Position numbers and translations under genes: made by a program | Notes under the pieces: model-generated | What the model was told of the DNA's origin: nothing | Databases searched by the model: none | Seen by the model: the letters and a program-made list of their open reading frames with translations, nothing else | In this document: positions 3,412-35,999 of the stretch, piece by piece | Layout: the number at the start of each line of letters is the position of its first letter | Numbering within the stretch: position 1 is the first letter of the stretch | Origin: a virus | DNA: 64,000 nt | Direction: 5' to 3' (one strand) | Virus record (IMG/VR): IMGVR_UViG_3300024358_000010

Positions 3412-3685
3412 TTTTTGGCGCTTGGATAGCTTTTTAGATGTTGCCCTGAAGATGAGGATGCTGAGCAAGAGGTCGGCCGCTTTGGTAGCGTATGGCTTTG
3501 CGGATGTACTTTAGCCGCTGAGAGCATGCAACAAGGGACCCTACTTTTATTAGGGAGGGTAGCGGGTGGGTATGGGCCGGGCCTTTAATCGGGTGGTTCC
3601 ACCTTTATAGAGTATTTGCGCTGCGGGGACCCCATTTTCCGAGGGATTCCTTAGTGTTCTGGAGGCTAGCGGGTATTTCCGAGTC

Positions 3686-3808
3686 TATTATTAAATATAA
3701 TTAATTAAATAATTAAAATTAATTAATTATTAAATTTAATTAAAATTAATTATATAAATCTGAAACTATTAATATATATAATTAAATAATAATAAATATT
3801 ATTATATA
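3686..3808. other. extreme A/T-rich block (candidate origin, unwinding element or genome-end marker)
   Basis: 123 bp with only 3 G/C, built from TTAATTAA/TATAAT-like words; directly precedes the early-like cassette array. Confidence 0.6.
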
Positions 3809-3845
3809 GAGACTGGTGCCAATCAACACTATTGGGAGGTGTACT

Positions 3846-4217
3846 ATGGACAAGTTTGCCAGCCAACAAGCAGCCTTGCGTGCAGCCCTGACAATTGTGC
3901 TTGGATCCGAGCCTGTCAAGGGCCAACTGGTCATCACCGACGAGCAGCGTGCCGCCGTGGGACAATTGATGATGCAGTGGTTGAGGGAGGAGCGCTGGAC
4001 GATCAAGGAGGGTACGCGCGCCGCGGCCGAACCTATGATGTACATAACTGGTCGCAGGCCGACCGACCTGATCCAAGCCTGGGTGAACCCCAGGAAGAAG
4101 GAGAAGAGTGAGGAGGTTGGTGGTGACAAGCTCGCCCTCATCAAGCAGGCAGTTGACGCTGGGCTGATGAGCAAGGAGCAGGCGCAAGAGCTGATCATGA
4201 AGTTCCTGGCTGCGTGA
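3846..4217 (+). CDS. early-like protein, divergent member of the four-gene paralog family (with 5714, 9509, 25959)
   Basis: GGAGG RBS before ATG 3846; SQxxA N-terminus and a YITG...W segment align with the other paralogs. Confidence 0.65.
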   Translation: MDKFASQQAALRAALTIVLGSEPVKGQLVITDEQRAAVGQLMMQWLREERWTIKEGTRAAAEPMMYITGRRPTDLIQAWVNPRKKEKSEEVGGDKLALIKQAVDAGLMSKEQAQELIMKFLAA

Positions 4218-4235
4218 TCTGTAGCAGTGTCGGGC

Positions 4236-4257
4236 GGGACTCACGGATCCGAGTCCC
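4236..4257 (+). promoter_or_regulatory. GGA-loop hairpin 1 (CsrA/Rsm-site-like, 8-nt loop variant)
   Basis: GGGACTC-ACGGATCC-GAGTCCC, 18 nt after stop 4217. Confidence 0.7.
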
Positions 4258-4287
4258 CTAGAGGCAACCCGAAACTAGGAGGTAGCT

Positions 4288-4356
4288 ATGATCATTGAGA
4301 TAGCGCTGACGATAGCGACGATCATCGTGTGCAACCTGCTGCTCCGCGCAGCGTAA
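4288..4356 (+). CDS. 22-aa hydrophobic micropeptide
   Basis: AGGAGG RBS; MIIEIALTIATIIVCNLLLRAA. Confidence 0.55.
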   Translation: MIIEIALTIATIIVCNLLLRAA

Positions 4357-4370
4357 CCAGGAGGTCCGAT

Positions 4371-4595
4371 ATGAGAGTGCAGTTCAAGTCAAGGCACGAG
4401 GCAACCATCTCCTTCACGGCCGAGTCGTTCGAGAAGCTGATGTCTAAGCAGTTCGACGAGCTCGAGTGCGTGATGGTCGACGAGCGGGTGATCGTGATCA
4501 CGAGGTCGCAGCTCGTGTTCCTGTGGGCTAAGACGCGCGACTGGCGCAAGGTGCCGCACTCCAGCACTATGGTGAAGATACTGAAAGTAGCGTAG
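4371..4595 (+). CDS. hypothetical protein
   Basis: AGGAGG RBS before ATG 4371. Confidence 0.7.
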   Translation: MRVQFKSRHEATISFTAESFEKLMSKQFDELECVMVDERVIVITRSQLVFLWAKTRDWRKVPHSSTMVKILKVA

Positions 4596-4602
4596 CTGTT
4601 AT

Positions 4603-4620
4603 GGGCTCACGGATGAGCCC
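4603..4620 (+). promoter_or_regulatory. GGA-loop hairpin 2
   Basis: GGGCTC-ACGGAT-GAGCCC, 7 nt after stop. Confidence 0.8.
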
Positions 4621-4650
4621 CTAGAGGCAACCCGAAACTAGGAGGTTATT

Positions 4651-5025
4651 ATGAGCAGCAACAACGACATCATCCAAGTGATCATGAACGACCTCAACGC
4701 CCACCCGCAGCGCGGCCGCATCGACGTGATGGACCCGCTGGCGGATGAAATGGGCCTCGACAGCGTTCTGCCCGGCGACGTCGTGATCGCGCCCGACTTC
4801 GATGACGATGAGCTGTGTGCCGCCGGCGACACCGACGGCGTGAACGAGCTGGCCGAATGGTACAACGGCACGCTGTACATCCAGATCGACCGGGTGATGA
4901 ACTCGCTCGGGTACGAGATGATCCACGAGAACGACGGCAGCGGCGGCGGACTCTACTACGGCATAGTCCAGTACCGCAAGCGGTTTCTGACCGACACCAC
5001 GACCCGGCTGCGCATCGTCAAGTAA
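4651..5025 (+). CDS. acidic hypothetical protein
   Basis: 124 aa with AGGAGG RBS. Confidence 0.75.
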   Translation: MSSNNDIIQVIMNDLNAHPQRGRIDVMDPLADEMGLDSVLPGDVVIAPDFDDDELCAAGDTDGVNELAEWYNGTLYIQIDRVMNSLGYEMIHENDGSGGGLYYGIVQYRKRFLTDTTTRLRIVK

Positions 5026-5032
5026 TCTTTGT

Positions 5033-5050
5033 GGGCTCACGGATGAGCCT
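5033..5050 (+). promoter_or_regulatory. GGA-loop hairpin 3
   Basis: GGGCTC-ACGGAT-GAGCCT, 7 nt after stop. Confidence 0.8.
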
Positions 5051-5117
5051 TCTGTAGCAGTGTCGCCCGCATTCGCCATCCCCGAAACTATTATCAAGTA
5101 TAATAAGGAGATGCAAC

Positions 5118-5387
5118 ATGAGCAACCAAAACCTTATCACCCAGATCAAGCAGTTCTTGGACTCAAACGACTCAGCACCTGGCGCTCGCTGCTTTGTGCT
5201 GCAGCACATCCGCGATGTGCCTGATACTGAGTTCAGTGCGATCTATGAAGAGTCTGAGGGTGTCAATGACACAGAGCGCAACGCGCTGATCGATTCCATG
5301 ACTGATGCGCAATTGCTGGAGCTGTCTGCGAGCTTGCTCGAGATCGCCAGCGAGAAGATCCTGTATCTTGAAGACTCTGTACGGTAA
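5118..5387 (+). CDS. hypothetical protein
   Basis: AAGGAG RBS; CCGAAAC motif at 5081. Confidence 0.75.
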   Translation: MSNQNLITQIKQFLDSNDSAPGARCFVLQHIRDVPDTEFSAIYEESEGVNDTERNALIDSMTDAQLLELSASLLEIASEKILYLEDSVR

Positions 5388-5410
5388 CCAACTCAACTAA
5401 GGAGGTCAAC

Positions 5411-5611
5411 ATGTACGCCTTGAATGTCCGCTCTCCTGACTATGAGACTGCTATCGGGTTCGGGCCCACATGCGACGGTGTTGTCAAGATTATGCTGGTC
5501 GACGTGATGAGCGTCCGCGATCAAGTCTACTTCTACATCGCTGAGGATCTACTTGCCAACCTCGCTGAGGGTGAGATCTTGCCGCCAAACAGTCTACTGA
5601 CTATCTGCTGA
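5411..5611 (+). CDS. hypothetical protein
   Basis: AGGAGGTCAAC-ATG RBS. Confidence 0.7.
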   Translation: MYALNVRSPDYETAIGFGPTCDGVVKIMLVDVMSVRDQVYFYIAEDLLANLAEGEILPPNSLLTIC

Positions 5612-5618
5612 TTATCTC

Positions 5619-5636
5619 GGGCTCACGGATGAGCCC
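5619..5636 (+). promoter_or_regulatory. GGA-loop hairpin 4
   Basis: GGGCTC-ACGGAT-GAGCCC, 7 nt after stop. Confidence 0.8.
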
Positions 5637-5713
5637 AACTATCTCCGAAATTAACATTAAATATAAATGATGACGATCAAGTTAATCAACCAACCAAATA
5701 TCAGGAGAACAAC

Positions 5714-6220
5714 ATGAGCAAGCTATCACAACACGCCGCAGTCGTCCAAGTCACCCAAGCCCACTTCGGTGAGCGCTTCATCCCCGGCTCCGACATCAAA
5801 GAGATCGCGACCAAGTCCGACAAGCAAGTCATCGCCACCAAGATCGCCGAGATGATGCTCGAAGGTGCGGTCGAGCTGAGCGATGGCGCCCGAGCCAAGT
5901 ACGGCGAGTCCGCCGAGACCCTAACGAGCAAGTACGTGGTCGGCATGGTCACCAACTGGTTCAACAAGTCCAAGGAGCTTAACGGTGGCGTCAAGTACGA
6001 AGCCAAGAATCCTGGCTCGCGGTTCGGTGCCGGTGATGCGCAGCTGAAAGAGCTCAACCTCCTCCGCAAGCAGCTCGTCGAGATCGGCAACGAAGACGGC
6101 GTCGCGCGGTGTGACGAAGCCATCGCGCAGCGCAAAGAGTTCCTGCGCGAACAGAACCAGCCGAAAGTTGAGATCAACGCAGACAACCTCCCAGCTAACC
6201 TTCGCGATCTAGTCGGTTAA
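5714..6220 (+). CDS. early-like protein, paralog family (YVxGxxxNWFNKxxxLNGG)
   Basis: Strong similarity to 9509..10033 (NWFNK..LNGG.KYEAKNPGSR, RCDEAIAQR.EFL). Confidence 0.85.
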   Translation: MSKLSQHAAVVQVTQAHFGERFIPGSDIKEIATKSDKQVIATKIAEMMLEGAVELSDGARAKYGESAETLTSKYVVGMVTNWFNKSKELNGGVKYEAKNPGSRFGAGDAQLKELNLLRKQLVEIGNEDGVARCDEAIAQRKEFLREQNQPKVEINADNLPANLRDLVG

Positions 6221-6230
6221 TCAGCAGCGC

Positions 6231-6256
6231 GGATGAGCTCACGGACGAGCTCATCC
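6231..6256 (+). promoter_or_regulatory. GGA-loop hairpin 5
   Basis: GGATGAGCTC-ACGGAC-GAGCTCATCC (10-bp stem), 10 nt after stop. Confidence 0.8.
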
Positions 6257-6318
6257 TTCGCTTCTTCTGATCTTATTAATTAATATGATCAACAACTAAC
6301 TACGAAAGCGAGATCAAC

Positions 6319-6576
6319 ATGAGCAACGCACAGCACATCTTAGACAACTGTGATCTTCTCGTTAAAGCTGACTGCAAGATCGTTGATGACGTTGTGTACG
6401 AGCGCTGTAAGTTTGTTGACCCTCTGTTTACAAAGTCTGAGTTCGTAAATACTGATACTGAGACATACTATCTGAACGACGATGATCACGTGTATCGCTT
6501 CTTCATCACTGACGACGACTACGACTATGTGACTGACGCTGAGACTGTAAGCAAGCTCAACGATCTCTTCAAGTGA
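6319..6576 (+). CDS. acidic hypothetical protein
   Basis: 85-aa ORF between hairpins. Confidence 0.7.
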   Translation: MSNAQHILDNCDLLVKADCKIVDDVVYERCKFVDPLFTKSEFVNTDTETYYLNDDDHVYRFFITDDDYDYVTDAETVSKLNDLFK

Positions 6577-6583
6577 TCTGATC

Positions 6584-6605
6584 GCGAGCTCGAAGATGAG
6601 CTCGC
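6584..6605 (+). promoter_or_regulatory. hairpin 6 (variant loop GAAGAT, no GGA)
   Basis: GCGAGCTC-GAAGAT-GAGCTCGC, 7 nt after stop. Confidence 0.65.
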
Positions 6606-6835
6606 TTCTCTTCTCAAACCCAGCAACCACTCAGGAGACGCTATGAAAATCAATGATCGAGTGTCTACTCCAGAAGGTGATGGTGTTGTTGTTAGTTTAT
6701 CCATAGACAATGATATGTTTGAGAGCGAAGAAGGACCCAACATCTGTGTTCAACTAGATTCTGGGGATGTGCTTTACTTTTATAGCGATGAGTTAACTAC
6801 TTAAGCTTAGACTCACAACCGCTCAGGAGGTCAGC

Positions 6836-7111
6836 ATGTTTACGAGTGAAGATCTTGGTGGTCACGTCATTAAAGTTGATACTGTACTCCGCTATGATGA
6901 CAGCGACCGATCCCATATCCTCGTGCTGTCTGATACTGACTCTGATGGTCTAGTCCACATCTACTACGGACCAAGTCTGGCAGATGCGCTGCAAGAAATA
7001 TCTGAGCTGGTTGACTCCTCTGAGATGGCAACCTTAAGCAACCAGCTCAATACGTACCTGAGTGAGTATCACTCCAGCTTCTTAGCTCAACAACAAAGGA
7101 GGTCAACATGA
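6836..7111 (+). CDS. hypothetical protein
   Basis: AGGAGGTCAGC-ATG. Confidence 0.7.
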   Translation: MFTSEDLGGHVIKVDTVLRYDDSDRSHILVLSDTDSDGLVHIYYGPSLADALQEISELVDSSEMATLSNQLNTYLSEYHSSFLAQQQRRST

Positions 7112-7317
7112 TAACCAAGCGAGACATAGTGCGGATGGCGATGGTGTCGGCTGACAGCATGACAACCAACGTGTATGATCTTGACTACTACCGAGCGCGG
7201 ATCAAGTTCGTCGACGACTACCAGCCAAGCAAACCAACCACCAAGTTCAAGACCGACCGCGAGCGAGTTAAAGAGTTGCAGAAGAAGAATAACAACTACA
7301 AAGATATCCGCAGTTAA
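7108..7317 (+). CDS. hypothetical protein
   Basis: AGGAGGTCAAC-ATG; followed by hairpin GGTGCAGC-ctcaa-GCTGCACC (7324-7344). Confidence 0.7.
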   Translation: MITKRDIVRMAMVSADSMTTNVYDLDYYRARIKFVDDYQPSKPTTKFKTDRERVKELQKKNNNYKDIRS

Positions 7318-7597
7318 CCGTCTGGTGCAGCCTCAAGCTGCACCGACACTGCTACGCCCAAGCCCGCCACAGCGCGCCGGTTGTTTCCGAAACTATTAAT
7401 TAATATAATTAAGGAGGTCAAAATGAAAGTTATACTGTCGAACAGTGACGATAGTCTAGGGATCGGTAAAATCCTAGTCTTTGAAGAAAACGACGTGTCG
7501 ATATCGATCTCCTCAGAAGAGGAGTGGTGTGTAGTCGATCACTCCGATAATGATCGTTGTTACTACGGGTACGATCTGGTTAAACTCTAAAGTAAAT

Positions 7598-7617
7598 TGG
7601 GGTCATGGATGACCCCA
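7598..7617 (+). promoter_or_regulatory. GGA-loop hairpin 7
   Basis: TGGGGTC-ATGGAT-GACCCCA, 7 nt after stop 7590. Confidence 0.8.
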
Positions 7618-7666
7618 CTTGAGTTTCCGAAACCAATCTTACATGTGAATAACTCAGGAGGTCAAA

Positions 7667-7936
7667 ATGATAGCAAATGTCAAACTTGAAGGCACTATCA
7701 ACCGCATCGTTACTCTTGCTGGACACCGCTTTGAAGCGTTTGATGAGTCATTCCGCTTCGCAGATGGCCCTAACTGCGACGAGTACGTAGCCGACCATGA
7801 TCTCAAACTAGCCGAACAATTAGACTCACTGTGTGAATTGTTTGCTGTCACCGATAACCAAGACGTCAGCTATGATGTTGACCTTGCAACAAAACAGATC
7901 TCCAACCTTAAAGTTGAATTAGTTGATCTCGACTAG
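7667..7936 (+). CDS. hypothetical protein
   Basis: AGGAGGTCAAA-ATG; TCCGAAAC at 7626. Confidence 0.75.
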   Translation: MIANVKLEGTINRIVTLAGHRFEAFDESFRFADGPNCDEYVADHDLKLAEQLDSLCELFAVTDNQDVSYDVDLATKQISNLKVELVDLD

Positions 7937-7953
7937 ACCTTCGGAGGGCGCTC

Positions 7954-7973
7954 GGGACTCACGGATGAGTCCC
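7954..7973 (+). promoter_or_regulatory. GGA-loop hairpin 8
   Basis: GGGACTC-ACGGAT-GAGTCCC, 17 nt after stop. Confidence 0.8.
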
Positions 7974-7979
7974 ACTACC

Positions 7980-7989
7980 TCCGAATCAA
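7980..7989 (+). promoter_or_regulatory. conserved promoter-like motif TCCGAATCAA (representative copy)
   Basis: Exact 10-mer at 7980, 8691, 19591, 20019, 21213, 35887, 40932, 44600 and 53479, plus variants; mostly 33-48 nt upstream of plus-strand starts. Confidence 0.8.
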
Positions 7990-8728
7990 TTAGAGGGTAT
8001 AAATAGGAGGTCAACATGGACAATGCGCAGCTCAAGTCTCTCGAAGAGATCCTGACTTATCTCAACTCGATCGACATAGCTGAAGATCCAGACACTTTCG
8101 AGTATTTATCTGGCATACGCGACCAAGCCAGCCGTATCATGCGCGACACTATACAGTGGGTCGAAAGGGGATCACTATGAAAGTGGTATTCACCGACGAC
8201 GAGCTGATGCTGATGGCCGACCTCGTCGAGGATGCGCTGACTCGAGAGCCGAACCGAGACGATCTCAAGCAGCTGATGTCGCGGCTCGCTTACTTAACCA
8301 CCACCAAGTGGGAGGTCTAGCATGGATATTAACCAGGAGAAAGTGCTGCTGCTCAACGGCATCGCACACCTCAAATACGAGCTCATGCTGACTCGCGGTC
8401 CAAGAAGTATCGACATCCTCGAAAGGCTTGAGACGCTGCGTAATTGCCTCGAGATCTTGATCAGCAAAGAACTTCGAATCTTTTCCAAGGAGATCTAATA
8501 TGAAAGCGTTGACTAGCGCCGAACTCAAGAGGATCTACAAGGGTAAGCGTCCCAAGTCAGCCTGGGAAGTTCTTCTAACCCCGCCAAAGAAAGGATAGCG
8601 TGATGCTTGCTATGCAGATCATCAAAGCCACCGCTGTAGCAGCGACCATGCTGCTGATCGTCGCCGCGGTGAACATCGCTGTAAAGATCATCCGAATCAA
8701 TAAGTAAGTATAATAAACAGGAGGTTAT

Positions 8729-9508: not shown

Positions 9509-10033
9509 GTGTTATCCATGGCTATGAAGCAACGTGAAGCAGTCTACCAAGTCACCACCGAAGTCCTCGCCGCCAAAGGCATCGAGTTCATGCCCACCGT
9601 CACCGACGTGCGCGACCTCGTCAACTCCGAGATCCGCTCGGAGATCACCGACAAGATCGTGACCATGTTCCAAGAAGGTCAAGTGGAGTTCAAGTCTACC
9701 GAGTCCAACCAGGAGAAGATGTCCGACACCAAGAAGCTCCGCAGCTACGTCACCGGCCTCATCACCAACTGGTTCAACAAGGATACGCAGCTCAACGGCG
9801 GCGCCAAGTACGAAGCCAAAAACCCCGGTTCCCGCTCACCCGACGCCCAGCTGAAAGAGCTCCGCATCCTCAAGAAGCACCTCGAAGCCAAAGGTGACGC
9901 TGACGGTGTCAGCCGCTGCGACGAAGCGATCGCCCAGCGGATCGAGTTCCTCAAGGCAGAGAAAGCTCCAACTTCCCTCCCAGCCGTAGACCCAGACAAC
10001 CTCCCCGACTTCCTGAAGGACCTGGCTGTCTAA
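9509..10033 (+). CDS. early-like protein, paralog of 5714..6220
   Basis: Shared motifs; true start probably 9518 or 9524. Confidence 0.85.
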   Translation: MLSMAMKQREAVYQVTTEVLAAKGIEFMPTVTDVRDLVNSEIRSEITDKIVTMFQEGQVEFKSTESNQEKMSDTKKLRSYVTGLITNWFNKDTQLNGGAKYEAKNPGSRSPDAQLKELRILKKHLEAKGDADGVSRCDEAIAQRIEFLKAEKAPTSLPAVDPDNLPDFLKDLAV

Positions 10034-28357: not shown

Positions 28358-30700
28358 TCACGAGCTGCAGACTACGCAGTCTTCTGGATTATCAATTGAA
28401 CATGCCGTGACGTCGTTTGCTTTCTGCTCTTGGACCGTAACCTTCACGGACTCTTTAGCTGCCTTGGTGCGCAGATAATACATCCCAGTCTTCAGACCTT
28501 TCTTCCACGCGTAGAGATGCAGCGAAGCGATCTGGTCTAGCGTGGGGTTGGCCATGTGGATGTTCATACTTTGACTCTGGCAGATAAATACTCCGCGGTC
28601 GGCGGCCATGTCTATCACGACCTTTTGGGATGTTTCCCACACGGTCTTGTAGATCTTCCTGACGTCCTCTGGTATCTCTTCTATACCCTGGACTGATCCG
28701 TTGCTGGAGATGATCTTGTCGACCATCTTGCGGTTCCACAGACCTAGTTCCTGCATATGCTTGACGAGGTGCTTGTTGACGACGACAAATTCGCCAGCGA
28801 GCGTTTCGCGCTTATAGAGATTGCTGGTGTGAATCTCAAACGCCTCATAGTTATCAAAGATCTGCGACGTCGAAGCGGTTGGCATTGGTGCTAGGAGAAG
28901 AGAGTTTCTTGCACCGTGCTTCTTAAGTTTCTCGCGAACAGTTTTCCAATGCTCTTCCCAAGTCAGTGGACCTTTATATCCCCACAGGTCGAACTGCAAA
29001 AGTCCTCGTGACAAAGGGCTGCCATCGTATGACTCATATGCACCATATTTTTCAGCTAGATCGATAGATGCCTGCATAGAACCCAAATAGATAGTCTCGA
29101 ACATTGACCGATTTAGCTCGCGAGCCTCAGGCGAGTCATAGGGAATACGCAGCATCATGAAGGCGTCTGCTAGACCTTGCACGCCGATCCCGATAGGGCG
29201 ATGCTTCTCGTTAGAGTTCTCAGTCGCTGGTGTGGGGTAATAGTTCTTGTCGATAACGCGGTTGAGGTTTACTGTGGCATCGTATGCAACTTGGCGAAGG
29301 TGTTCGACATCAATGCCGCCGTTCTTGACGAATTTAGGAAGACAGATCGAGGCTAGGTTGCACACAGCGGTCTCTTCAGCAGAAGAGTACTCGATGATCT
29401 CAGTGCAGAGGTTTGAGGATTTGATGGTGCCGAGATTTTGCTGATTAGACTTCTTATTCGCCGCGTCCTTGTACAGCATGTACGGTGTCCCAGTCTCCTT
29501 CTGGGACATCGCTATCCGGCGCATTAACTCAGAAGCCTTGACAGTTTTGCGGCCTCGACCTTCTTGCTCGTATTTTGTGTACAGCTTCTCAAACTCTTCG
29601 CCCCAGACCTCGTGTAGATCTGGCGCTTCATCAGGCGAGAATAGCGTCCAATCCTCGTTGTTTTCTAGGCGCTTCATGAATAGATCTGGGATCCACATCG
29701 CTGGGAAAAGATCATGGCATCTTCTCTCGTCGTCGCCGGTGGTCTTGCGGATATCGATGAAGTCCTCGATGTCGGCGTGCCAAGGCTCAAGATAAATTGC
29801 AGCTGAGCCTCGACGCTTTCCGCCCTGGTTCACGTATCGGAACGTCGCGTTGACGTGGCGGAGCATCGGGATTAGTCCATCGCCAAAGCGCTGGCTAGAA
29901 TTAATCACTGCGCCATCTGCGCGGACATTGTGAACCCACATCCCGACGCCACCGCTGTTCTTACTGATGAGTGCGCACTCCTTATCGGTGTCGTAGATGC
30001 CTTCGAGTGAGTCATCTTTCATGGCAATGAGGAAGCACGATGACATCTGCGGTCTAGCTGTTCCGGCGTTGAACAAGGTTGGCGTTGCGTGCGTGTAGTA
30101 TCCCAAAGACAAATAGTCATAAAGCTTTTTGACCTCGTTGAGGTCGACGCCGCAGATTGACACTGCTACACGCAGAAATAGAGTCTGTGGGCGTTCTAAG
30201 ACTTTTCTCTCAGCAGACCAGGATCCATCTGCTAGCTTCTTTCTCTTAGATTTGTCGATTATTCCCAGTAAATATCTGGATTCAAGAGTTTTAAAACCAA
30301 AATACGAAAATGTGAAATCCCGATCATAATCGATCACAGATCGAAGATCATCGCCCAAAGACTCTACGGTTTCCATAAAGTCGTCAGATAAAACGCCTAC
30401 AGAATAGAGATCTTTCCAAGCCTGAATGAAATCATCAGGAGTTTCTTTGTGCAGAGCTGAGGCAGCAATAGCTGAAGCTAATTTGTCATAATCTGGGTGC
30501 TCTGGTGCTAAAGATGCTGCTGTTTCAATTAGTAACCTATCTGTTTCGCGCGTAGTCACATTGTCATACAACCCCGCAACTACTTTTTGAGCGATCAAAA
30601 CCGGTTCGACCTGCAAACCTTTCGCGTGATTCCTTACCCGATTTAGTATTTTGTCGAATGAAACTTCTTCTGTGCTTCCGTTCCGCTTTACTACGCGCAT
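28358..30700 (-). CDS. nrdA: ribonucleotide reductase class Ia alpha subunit with ATP cone
   Basis: MRVVKRNG ATP cone, ATPTLFNAG, SSCF, SNLCTEI, APMPTAST, KTGMYYLR, C-terminal CxxC. Confidence 0.96.
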   Translation of the reverse strand: MRVVKRNGSTEEVSFDKILNRVRNHAKGLQVEPVLIAQKVVAGLYDNVTTRETDRLLIETAASLAPEHPDYDKLASAIAASALHKETPDDFIQAWKDLYSVGVLSDDFMETVESLGDDLRSVIDYDRDFTFSYFGFKTLESRYLLGIIDKSKRKKLADGSWSAERKVLERPQTLFLRVAVSICGVDLNEVKKLYDYLSLGYYTHATPTLFNAGTARPQMSSCFLIAMKDDSLEGIYDTDKECALISKNSGGVGMWVHNVRADGAVINSSQRFGDGLIPMLRHVNATFRYVNQGGKRRGSAAIYLEPWHADIEDFIDIRKTTGDDERRCHDLFPAMWIPDLFMKRLENNEDWTLFSPDEAPDLHEVWGEEFEKLYTKYEQEGRGRKTVKASELMRRIAMSQKETGTPYMLYKDAANKKSNQQNLGTIKSSNLCTEIIEYSSAEETAVCNLASICLPKFVKNGGIDVEHLRQVAYDATVNLNRVIDKNYYPTPATENSNEKHRPIGIGVQGLADAFMMLRIPYDSPEARELNRSMFETIYLGSMQASIDLAEKYGAYESYDGSPLSRGLLQFDLWGYKGPLTWEEHWKTVREKLKKHGARNSLLLAPMPTASTSQIFDNYEAFEIHTSNLYKRETLAGEFVVVNKHLVKHMQELGLWNRKMVDKIISSNGSVQGIEEIPEDVRKIYKTVWETSQKVVIDMAADRGVFICQSQSMNIHMANPTLDQIASLHLYAWKKGLKTGMYYLRTKAAKESVKVTVQEQKANDVTACSIDNPEDCVVCSS

Positions 30701-30858
30701 TAATCCTGCTCCGGATAGATATTTAATCAACAATATTAAAAATATACACTGCACAGCGCAGCAATCAAACAGACAAGTATATAATACCCTGCCGCACCGC
30801 CGAGGCAGTATATAAATCCGAATGTATAAATATCACAAATCGCAATGAAAGGATTGTT

Positions 30859-35225: not shown

Positions 35226-35999
35226 TCAGGTAGCTTCTTCAGAGATAGAGTCGTCTATCTCCTCTTCTCTCAGCTCGTTGAGCGAGAGTTTTGGTATCGA
35301 CTTCTTACTTATCCGCTCGTATATGCTTTTGATAGTTTTCTGCATCGTTTTGTTGTCGACTCGCTCGCTGAGCGCAGCATTTCTCGTGCGCCTTACTGAG
35401 CCTCTTTTGCGCTGCTGTATGACTTTGTCGGCCAAACCTAGTAAAACTGTCTCTTCTGCGGTTAAATACAAATCGCGCTGGCACACGTCCTGCCAAAACG
35501 CCTTAGGCATTCTAGAGTTTTGCTCAAAAATGTCATAAAGCTTATCTTGAAGATTTTGAAAGTGCTTGCTGGTGATCTGAAAGTCGGTGTGCCGGTCCTC
35601 TAACTGATCTGATCCGTCATGGACGAGAACGTAAGTATTTTTGTGCAGCATACGCAGATCGCATACCGCCATGATCCATGTGGCGGCAGACGCTATGAGA
35701 CCGCTGCCAACGAACTTAACTTGAACAGGGGACGCTTCGATCTCGTCTACTAATCTGAGCATCTCGTACGGATCGCCACCTGGACACGACATATGGATCT
35801 CGATGGGTGCCGAGTTCTTCTCATACATCCTGTGCATGCCGCGCACTACGGCCTCTATAGACCCCCAGCCGACGTCTGATCCATTATCCGAATCAATTAT
35901 TCCAAAGTATATGCGACGCTTTTCGATGTCAATACCGAAGGTTAAGATTTCATCTAGTGAGTTTTTGTCAGACACGGCATCCTCCATCAGCTTGAACAT
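35226..35999 (-). CDS. ClpP-like serine protease
   Basis: SCPGG, IASAA (Ser), LVHDG (His), RDLYLTAEETVLLGLAD. Confidence 0.85.
   Translation of the reverse strand: MFKLMEDAVSDKNSLDEILTFGIDIEKRRIYFGIIDSDNGSDVGWGSIEAVVRGMHRMYEKNSAPIEIHMSCPGGDPYEMLRLVDEIEASPVQVKFVGSGLIASAATWIMAVCDLRMLHKNTYVLVHDGSDQLEDRHTDFQITSKHFQNLQDKLYDIFEQNSRMPKAFWQDVCQRDLYLTAEETVLLGLADKVIQQRKRGSVRRTRNAALSERVDNKTMQKTIKSIYERISKKSIPKLSLNELREEEIDDSISEEAT

Follow-up and report, generated by a model that had tools for sequence, protein, structure and literature searches.

What is the role of the short GC-rich hairpins that follow one stop codon after another among the early genes of an uncultured phage? The hairpins lie at 4.2-8.0 kb of the window analysed here, a stretch of 64,000 nucleotides (nt) that corresponds to bases 11533-75532 of the linear 109.9-kb IMG/VR virus record IMGVR_UViG_3300024358_000010. 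An earlier reading of the sequence, referred to below as the original prediction, described eight of these hairpins, likened their GGA-containing loops to the binding sites of the bacterial regulators CsrA, RsmA and RsmE, and proposed that together they act as a distributed CsrA sponge. Our analysis points to a somewhat different answer, in which the hairpins would be the stem-loop modules of mobile intergenic cassettes and carry a loop under selection; whether this CsrA-type loop is read by a CsrA/RsmA-family protein we regard as an even call. The hairpins, with a further one that served as a control, are:

4236-4257, plus strand: hairpin GGGACTC-ACGGATCC-GAGTCCC, an 8-nt loop variant containing ACGGAU, 18 nt past the stop codon and 11 nt before CCGAAAC; identical in relative G001

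4603-4620, plus strand: hairpin GGGCTC-ACGGAT-GAGCCC, 7 nt past the stop codon; one U-A pair different from the RsmE ligand hcnA Shine-Dalgarno (SD) RNA

5033-5050, plus strand: hairpin GGGCTC-ACGGAT-GAGCCt, 7 nt past the stop codon, followed by the 12-mer GTAGCAGTGTCG

5619-5636, plus strand: hairpin GGGCTC-ACGGAT-GAGCCC, 7 nt past the stop codon and 8 nt before CCGAAAT

6231-6256, plus strand: hairpin GGATGAGCTC-ACGGAC-GAGCTCATCC, after gene F, 10 nt past its stop codon

6584-6605, plus strand: hairpin GCGAGCTC-GAAGAT-GAGCTCGC, 7 nt past the stop codon, a decayed AAGGAU copy

7324-7344, plus strand: second-type hairpin GGTGCAGC-CTCAA-GCTGCACC, fused to the conserved 3' flank GACACTGCTACGCC

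7598-7617, plus strand: hairpin TGGGGTC-ATGGAT-GACCCCA, 7 nt past the stop codon, belonging to the K cassette (gene 7424-7590)

7954-7973, plus strand: hairpin GGGACTC-ACGGAT-GAGTCCC, 17 nt past the stop codon, inside the outer inverted repeat TTCGGAGG/CCTCCGAA

10042-10068, plus strand: control hairpin GGGAGGGAGA-CTAAACC-TCTCCCTCCC, after gene R

The first nine are GC-rich stem-loops located 6-18 nt past stop codons, and seven of them carry A-N-GGA-N loops. All eight hairpins of the original prediction are present, five at exactly 7 nt from the stop codon as described, and so are the single 8-nt loop (4236) and the single GAAGAT loop (6584); the ninth, at 7324-7344, is a second element type that it missed. 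The core TCA(C/T)GGA(T/C)GA, reported in six copies, is present in exactly that number on the plus strand, from 4607 to 7968, and the only other exact copies of this 10-mer in the window, at 35617 (plus) and 41259 (minus), have no stem. For a strict census, the element was defined as a C-ANGGAN-G hexaloop with at least five Watson-Crick pairs, and both strands of the whole record were searched. Six elements were found on the plus (sense) strand and none on the minus strand, all inside 3.4 kb, while 300 block shuffles gave 0.14 on average and 2 at most. The compensatory stem changes also proved real. In an alignment of 12 copies, double changes are seen in three outer stem pairs, the two inner pairs and the A, G, G and A of the loop are invariant, and the covariation score of 0.377 exceeds the 0.183 of shuffled alignments (0 of 500 shuffles reach 0.377); sliding the pairing partner abolishes pairing. 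In RNA folding, the hairpin dominated the local structure of eight of the nine intergenic regions; it was not predicted in the fold of 5026-5117. Counts of G-U versus A-C wobbles, considered as proof of RNA polarity, were uninformative. The claim that the hairpins lack a U-tract stood in part: five of the seven GGA hairpins have none, so that the combination expected of an intrinsic terminator, a GC stem followed directly by a U-tract, is not general, but the tails at 6231 and 6584 are U/C-rich, and 6584 and 7598, the only two to pass a lenient scan, are rated terminator-like.

The case for selection on the loop comes from related phages. We collected nine viral contigs by a search with early protein F and seven more river or lake loci through endolysin homologues. 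Thirteen related freshwater contigs hold 22 distinct hairpins of the GGA class, which lie just past stop codons and, with the exception of one inverted copy, on the sense strand. Their stems are unrelated (GGGCUC, GGGACUC, GGGGUC, GAGCUC, GGGAUC, GGGCC, GGACC/GGUCC, UGGGCC/GGCUCA, CUGAGCU/GGCUCAG, GUGCAC and GGAGC), and even the second base pair varies in the more distant contigs (U-A, C-G, A-U or G-C). The loops read ACGGAU, ACGGAC, AUGGAU, AUGGAC, AAGGAU or AUGGAA, with the A, the GGA and the closing C-G fixed in 22/22 hairpins and variation confined to the two N positions (C, U or A at the first; U, C or A at the second). This constancy spans contigs with endolysins only 61-81% identical. 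At individual sites, the orthologue of hairpin 7598 is TGGGCC-ATGGAT-GGCTCA in L111 and TGGGCC-ATGGAA-GGCCCA in L112, the loop orthologous to that of 7954 is AUGGAC in L015 and ACGGAC in L112, and the loop after gene F is ACGGAU or ACGGAC in G003 and G004. Counterparts of hairpin 6584 in L016, L017 and L113 read GAGCTC-AAGGAT-GAGCTC with the same 3' flank, ttctcttccaaacc; L015 and L017 also carry GGGACTCA-CAG-TGAGTCCC. The original prediction had named free loop variation in homologues as the mark of ordinary terminators or processing stems, and such variation was seen instead in the control hairpin after gene R, where position and stem composition are kept in all relatives and the loops are free (CCACAAC, CAA, CGACCAAA, ACTCTTC and GATCAGAA). 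Because the GGA-class loop is fixed while its stems diverge and the control loop varies freely, the apical C-ANGGAN-G loop is, on this comparison of sequences, kept by selection. The ACGGAU loop can alternatively close to a CGGA tetraloop; the ACGGAC, AUGGAC and AUGGAA loops of relatives cannot, and therefore the hexaloop is the shared form. The idea that GGAUGA supplies an in-frame UGA as a back-up stop was rejected, being true only of the 7-nt-spaced GGAU copies and not general.

GGA hairpins were also noted outside this group. The unrelated 67-kb viral contig L002 (IMGVR_UViG_3300005549_000009) holds the exact 18-mer GGGCTCACGGATGAGCCC, a single match that is about at chance level. At 4531-4580 it carries two adjacent GGA hairpins approximately 20 nt apart, GGGCTC-ACGGAT-GAGCCC and CCTCCGGGGC-ATGGAT-GCCTCGGGGG, with a U-tract after the second; this spacing would suit one CsrA dimer.

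Which protein could read such a loop? CsrA binds A(N)GGA within apical loops (PMC5207318, PMC7366521), and its binding can also promote termination or stabilise mRNA (PMC5207318). The printed ligands of RsmE include hcnA SD RNA, 5'-GGGCUUCACGGAUGAAGCCC, and RsmZ SL2, 5'-GGGCCAUCAAGGACGAUGGUCC, which contains the segment AUCAAGGACGAU (PMC13287468). The phage core UCANGGAYGA is found verbatim in both hcnA SD RNA and the RsmZ SL2 segment, which verifies against the printed sequence the likeness to hcnA pointed out in the original prediction, and the hairpin GGGAUC-ACGGAC-GAUCCC of L018 is close to the 4bpSL2 ligand (PMC13287468). The GGA lies in the apical loop in the seven window hairpins and in the 22 distinct hairpins of the relatives, and the phage family conforms to the extended consensus (A/U)CANGGANG(U/A), with only the N positions free. 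Since the core matches published ligands and only consensus N positions vary, a CsrA-family protein would very likely bind the phage loop in vitro. That the loop is a selected protein-recognition loop of the CsrA/Rsm type is suggested by the same comparison, and we put the chances for and against at about the same level. Bridging by a CsrA dimer was assessed from the presence of a second GGA site at a distance of 10-63 nt. The next GGA after a hairpin is that of the downstream SD sequence, at a distance of 29-76 nt in the window, where one hairpin lacks such a site, and of 30-134 nt in relatives, with a promoter-like motif in between.

This promoter-like motif belongs to a wider context that the original prediction overlooked: the hairpins are modules of cassettes in which a stop codon is followed by the hairpin (6-21 nt on, mode 7), the motif (mostly 6-11 nt further on) and an AGGAGG SD sequence. 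The remaining parts of the cassettes and the genes between them are:

3679, 3760, 5082, 5645, 7387, 7981 and 8692 (range 3679-8717), plus strand: motif C(C/T)GA(A/T)(A/T)C-N10-12-TATAA(T/A), 7-11 nt (once 32 nt) past hairpins and before an AGGAGG SD sequence

4268 and 4631, plus strand: truncated copies consisting of CCGAAAC and an SD sequence

3816-8180, plus strand: small co-oriented early ORFan genes A to M (n = 13-14); relatives differ in gene order and content precisely where the hairpins lie

The 110-kb record contains 11 copies of the motif, all of them on the plus strand, and no copy matches the sigma-70 consensus TTGACA-17-TATAAT. It may be a promoter for a phage factor or an RNA signal. 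At some sites motif and hairpin occur without each other. The form CCGAA(A/T)C-N10-12-TATAA(T/A) often abuts the SD sequence, also in intergenic regions of L110, and a sigma-70-style start would remove the SD sequence. At window 7937-8003, the outer inverted repeat TTCGGAGG ... CCTCCGAA allows the CCGAA motif to pair upstream of hairpin 7954 (-27.8 kcal/mol, z -2.9). A kissing interaction between the loop and CCGAA (CGGA:UCCG) was considered and dropped, as changes at the loop N position are uncompensated.

The cassettes are mobile. Genes that run A-B-C-D-E-F-G-H-I-J-K-L-M in the window run F-D-B-I-J-C-M in G003, and similarly in G004 and L016, while M to R are collinear. The K cassette, comprising the gene at 7424-7590, hairpin 7598 and a promoter-like motif, is deleted in G001, with the junction in the repeated, SD-containing aggaggtcaaaATG. 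Hairpin 7954 and its 5' flank travel with the downstream gene M despite a different upstream gene in relatives. Similar cassettes are known from T4-type phages as PeSLs, modules of a stem-loop and an early promoter that terminate upstream transcription and mediate the shuffling of ORFans (PMC2839356, PMC4122927).

The same cassettes also contain a second class of hairpin, with covarying stems, CCGA-type loops and the conserved 3' flank GACACTGCTACGCC. CCGAA also occurs in loops of this class. Near the hairpins, the 12-mer CGACACTGCTAC is present in both orientations, at 4221-4232 (minus), 5054-5065 (minus), 7344-7355 (plus), 9360 (plus) and 19558 (plus), and once beyond the window; every copy in relatives is joined directly to the 3' arm of a covarying hairpin (stem, CCGA-type loop, stem, ACACTGCTACGCC). 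The copies at 4221 and 7344 form inverted repeats on either side of most of the shuffled region.

Taken together, these features can be accommodated in a model in which the hairpins would be stem-loop modules of portable intergenic cassettes between small early ORFan genes, and the cassettes would double as crossover points for ORFan shuffling in the manner of PeSLs. In the sense transcript, the hairpin would form just outside the footprint of the terminating ribosome, where it could mark, attenuate or protect the 3' end of the upstream message. The C-ANGGAN-G subclass, since its loop is selected, would in addition be read by a sequence-specific factor, for which a host CsrA/RsmA-family protein is the best candidate because the motif is that family's proven high-affinity ligand. 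Binding could then lead to 3'-end protection, factor-assisted termination, gating of read-through translation or titration of CsrA. The structure and covariation of the hairpins, their strand bias and position, the constraint on the loop, the mobility of the cassettes and the identity to RsmE ligands are observed; the action at the RNA level, the role of CsrA as reader and the effect of binding we infer.

The phage and its host bear directly on this model. Judged by its genes, the phage is an uncultured freshwater myovirus without a close cultured relative. Its portal (28%) and tail sheath (31%) are nearest in identity to those of Myxococcus phage Mx1, followed by SPO1-like phages (28-31%), and a nucleotide search of the record against cultured phages gave no match. 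No match was found for a 991-amino acid (aa) structural protein, and six structural open reading frames (ORFs) had no Pfam hits. Searches of the record also found no transfer RNAs (tRNAs), no Cpn60 (GroEL) and no Pfam support for sigma-like proteins. The record, with an estimated completeness of 66% by CheckV and a GC content of 46.7%, comes from riverine metagenomes and is also present in six metatranscriptome runs. Host searches by nucleotide matches, portal and sheath, structural protein, tRNAs, NrdA and endolysin named no host. The large subunit of a class Ia ribonucleotide reductase (NrdA; 28358-30754, minus strand) is nearest to chromosomal NrdA of Bacteroidota (51-57%), with Tenacibaculum and Cellulophaga phages at about 50%, a distance too great to name a host, and this affinity conflicts with the strong SD sites of the phage, which are atypical for Bacteroidota. 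The nearest cultured homologues of the GH24 endolysin are lysozymes of enterobacterial prophages (48%), a weak hint of a possible Gram-negative host.

Several observations weigh against CsrA as the reader. CsrA dimers favour paired sites, whereas the phage sites are isolated, and transcripts started at the promoter-like motif would be without the hairpin, as the motif follows the hairpin and precedes the next SD sequence. The GGA has been lost from the loop of hairpin 6584, and the loop after gene F, which has the GGA form in the window, is an inverted AUCCGU in the 90%-identical G001, UCCG in L111 and L112, ACCGA in L019 and CCUAGC in L018. GGA hairpins are absent from relatives L114, L116, L021 and L022, and in the complete 177-kb relative G007 the strict core TCAYGGAYGA is matched at chance level only. 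Concerted evolution of recombining cassettes could also inflate conservation among close copies. The RNA evidence consists of metatranscriptome contigs only: four riverine RNA runs cover the hairpin region as assembled contigs, which give no transcript ends, strand or levels, and contig breaks near 4592/4632, 5643/5681 and 7324/7352 are not interpretable. The check for csrA in the rest of the phage proposed with the original prediction came back negative: neither the phage record nor five relatives yielded PF02599. The action of CsrA in vivo depends on a host that the searches did not name, and PF02599 is present in just 21/151 sampled genomes of Bacteroidota, the phylum nearest by NrdA; therefore, the presence of CsrA there is patchy and not predictable. 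To our knowledge, many abundant freshwater lineages are without CsrA.

The hairpins occupy a particular place in the genome. A long plus-strand block, flanked by minus-strand structural genes, begins at an AT-rich region near window 3.5-3.8 kb, and its first 4 kb contain the hairpins. Proteins F (5714-6220), R (9509-10033) and the divergent A (3816-4217) form a paralogous early family, which is better conserved among all the relatives than any other early marker. A conserved micro-ORF of approximately 21-29 aa (window 4289-4354; L015 5838-5925), located between the first early gene and gene B and preceded by its own SD sequence, encodes a hydrophobic peptide with the sequence MIIEIALTIATIIVCNLLL.

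A factor other than CsrA might read the loop, either phage-encoded or another RNA-binding protein of the host, for example an N/boxB- or RegB-like terminator, antiterminator or processing factor. Such a factor would be compatible with a conserved loop on covarying stems and with the tight spacing of the hairpin to both the stop codon and the CCGAA motif, and the second hairpin class, with its own flank in the same cassettes, suggests phage-specific signals in a region rich in ORFans. However, ten early proteins compared with Pfam and PHROG had zero matches and thus offer no candidate, and protein F, which has no sequence hit in the PDB, gives a confident all-helical model (predicted local distance difference test score 86) that has no structural match there either. 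Moreover, the factor would have to share the exact specificity of CsrA, free positions included, by coincidence. We consider a non-CsrA reader unlikely.

In the sponge of the original prediction, abundant early mRNAs, each ending in a high-affinity hairpin, would titrate host CsrA or RsmA and so reprogram early host translation. The strand-specific, RNA-type hairpin family with a selected motif matching the CsrA/RsmE site is the part of that interpretation that stands. The first transcripts made would present up to seven near-ideal sites with a core identical to the RsmZ SL2 and hcnA ligands, the number of sites varies among relatives without loss of the class, as would suit a dosage device, and the hairpin region is present in riverine RNA libraries. 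Unlike the hairpins packed into CsrB or RsmZ, the sites follow one another at intervals of 350-1000 nt on coding RNA, with a single site for each gene; a search of Rfam gave no family match, and in several relatives no more than one site is present. Interference with Csr through phage-borne csrA genes is already known (PMC7366521, PMC8450108), which lends the idea of interference some weight, but this known strategy adds CsrA instead of removing it, and RsmA represses CRISPR-Cas in Serratia, so titration could even aid the host (PMC8450108). A distributed sponge seems unlikely to us.

The hairpins could also be ordinary structural terminators, attenuators or 3' stabilisers, with the shared loop a legacy of recent duplication or gene conversion. 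Their position right past stop codons would fit, as would the terminator activity of PeSL stem-loops (PMC2839356), the terminator-like scan results for 6584 and 7598, and the replacement of GGA loops by other loops at the same site. Neutral decay, however, predicts the opposite of fully diverged stems around a loop fixed in 22 distinct hairpins, the loop of control hairpin 10042 does vary freely, and most of the GGA hairpins lack the U-tract, which makes a purely structural role improbable. Action at the DNA level, in which an extruded hairpin would serve as a promoter element of the kind used by the virion RNA polymerase (vRNAP) of phage N4 or as a recombination or nicking site, is very improbable. 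In its favour, a promoter-like motif follows the hairpin at 6-11 nt, phage N4 starts early transcription at DNA hairpins whose loop contains GGA (PMC4496689), some crossovers in PeSLs map to the loop (PMC2839356) and one loop is inverted in G001. Against it, the N4-type promoter is ruled out by loop size and strand (an N4-type enzyme would transcribe antisense from a coding-strand GGA; PMC4496689), no vRNAP-like gene was recognised (a 2369-aa ORF has only a weak tail-protein hit), and motifs without hairpins and hairpins without motifs both occur.

A reading of the loop by CsrA or RsmA would have consequences beyond this phage. The phage tampering with the Csr/Rsm network known so far is the carriage of csrA genes only (PMC7366521, PMC8450108), and our literature search for RNA sites that bind or titrate CsrA in phage found no report. 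The motif described here is identical to ligands for which RsmE complexes have been solved. It is possible, if doubtful, that a freshwater myovirus lineage places exact Rsm/Csr ligand mimics at the 3' end of each of its first transcripts to soak up or recruit the host regulator. If this ligand mimicry is true, it would be the first virus-borne array of CsrA decoy or recruitment sites, in which each acquired early gene brings its own CsrA handle on a mobile cassette. If the host has no CsrA, the reader indicated by these data would be an RNA-binding factor of CsrA-like specificity. The cassettes extend PeSL-type mobile regulatory modules beyond T4-type phages, and a stem-loop module with a selected recognition loop links gene shuffling to post-transcriptional control.

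Comparison with known systems places the hairpins as follows. Like the hairpin promoters of N4 vRNAP, they are short GC hairpins with a GGA-containing loop that adjoin early genes. However, N4 promoters have a 3-nt loop on the template strand and a 5-7 base pair stem and require the giant vRNAP (PMC4496689), whereas the phage hairpins present a 6-nt loop on the coding strand, and no vRNAP was recognised in the phage. CsrB, CsrC and RsmX/Y/Z sponges and mRNA-borne CsrA decoys likewise present multiple GGA hairpins of the same type on abundant transcripts. In contrast to the Csr/Rsm sponge RNAs, which pack many hairpins into each 100-400 nt of non-coding RNA, the phage sites extend along 3.7 kb of coding RNA, and no Gac-type control is evident in the phage. 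Individual CsrA/RsmE sites share the C-ANGGAN-G hexaloop, and variation in the phage family falls on the N positions of the consensus; unlike known sites, those of the phage lie just past early-gene stop codons instead of over a ribosome-binding site, and are isolated instead of paired. The arrangement of PeSLs is similar in that a repeated intergenic stem-loop, a promoter-type motif and an SD sequence flank small early ORFans in a hyperplastic region (PMC2839356, PMC4122927), and, as with PeSLs, indels, replacements and reordering between close relatives have cassette junctions. Here, however, the stem-loop is always upstream of the motif, differing from PeSLs, and its loop sequence is selected, a feature not reported for PeSLs. 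Unlike PeSL hosts, the phage is not T4-type, its portal and sheath being nearest to Mx1 and SPO1-like phages, and its motif, a putative promoter, is not of the sigma-70 consensus. Therefore, the cassettes are best described as a functional analogue of PeSLs and not as members of that group.

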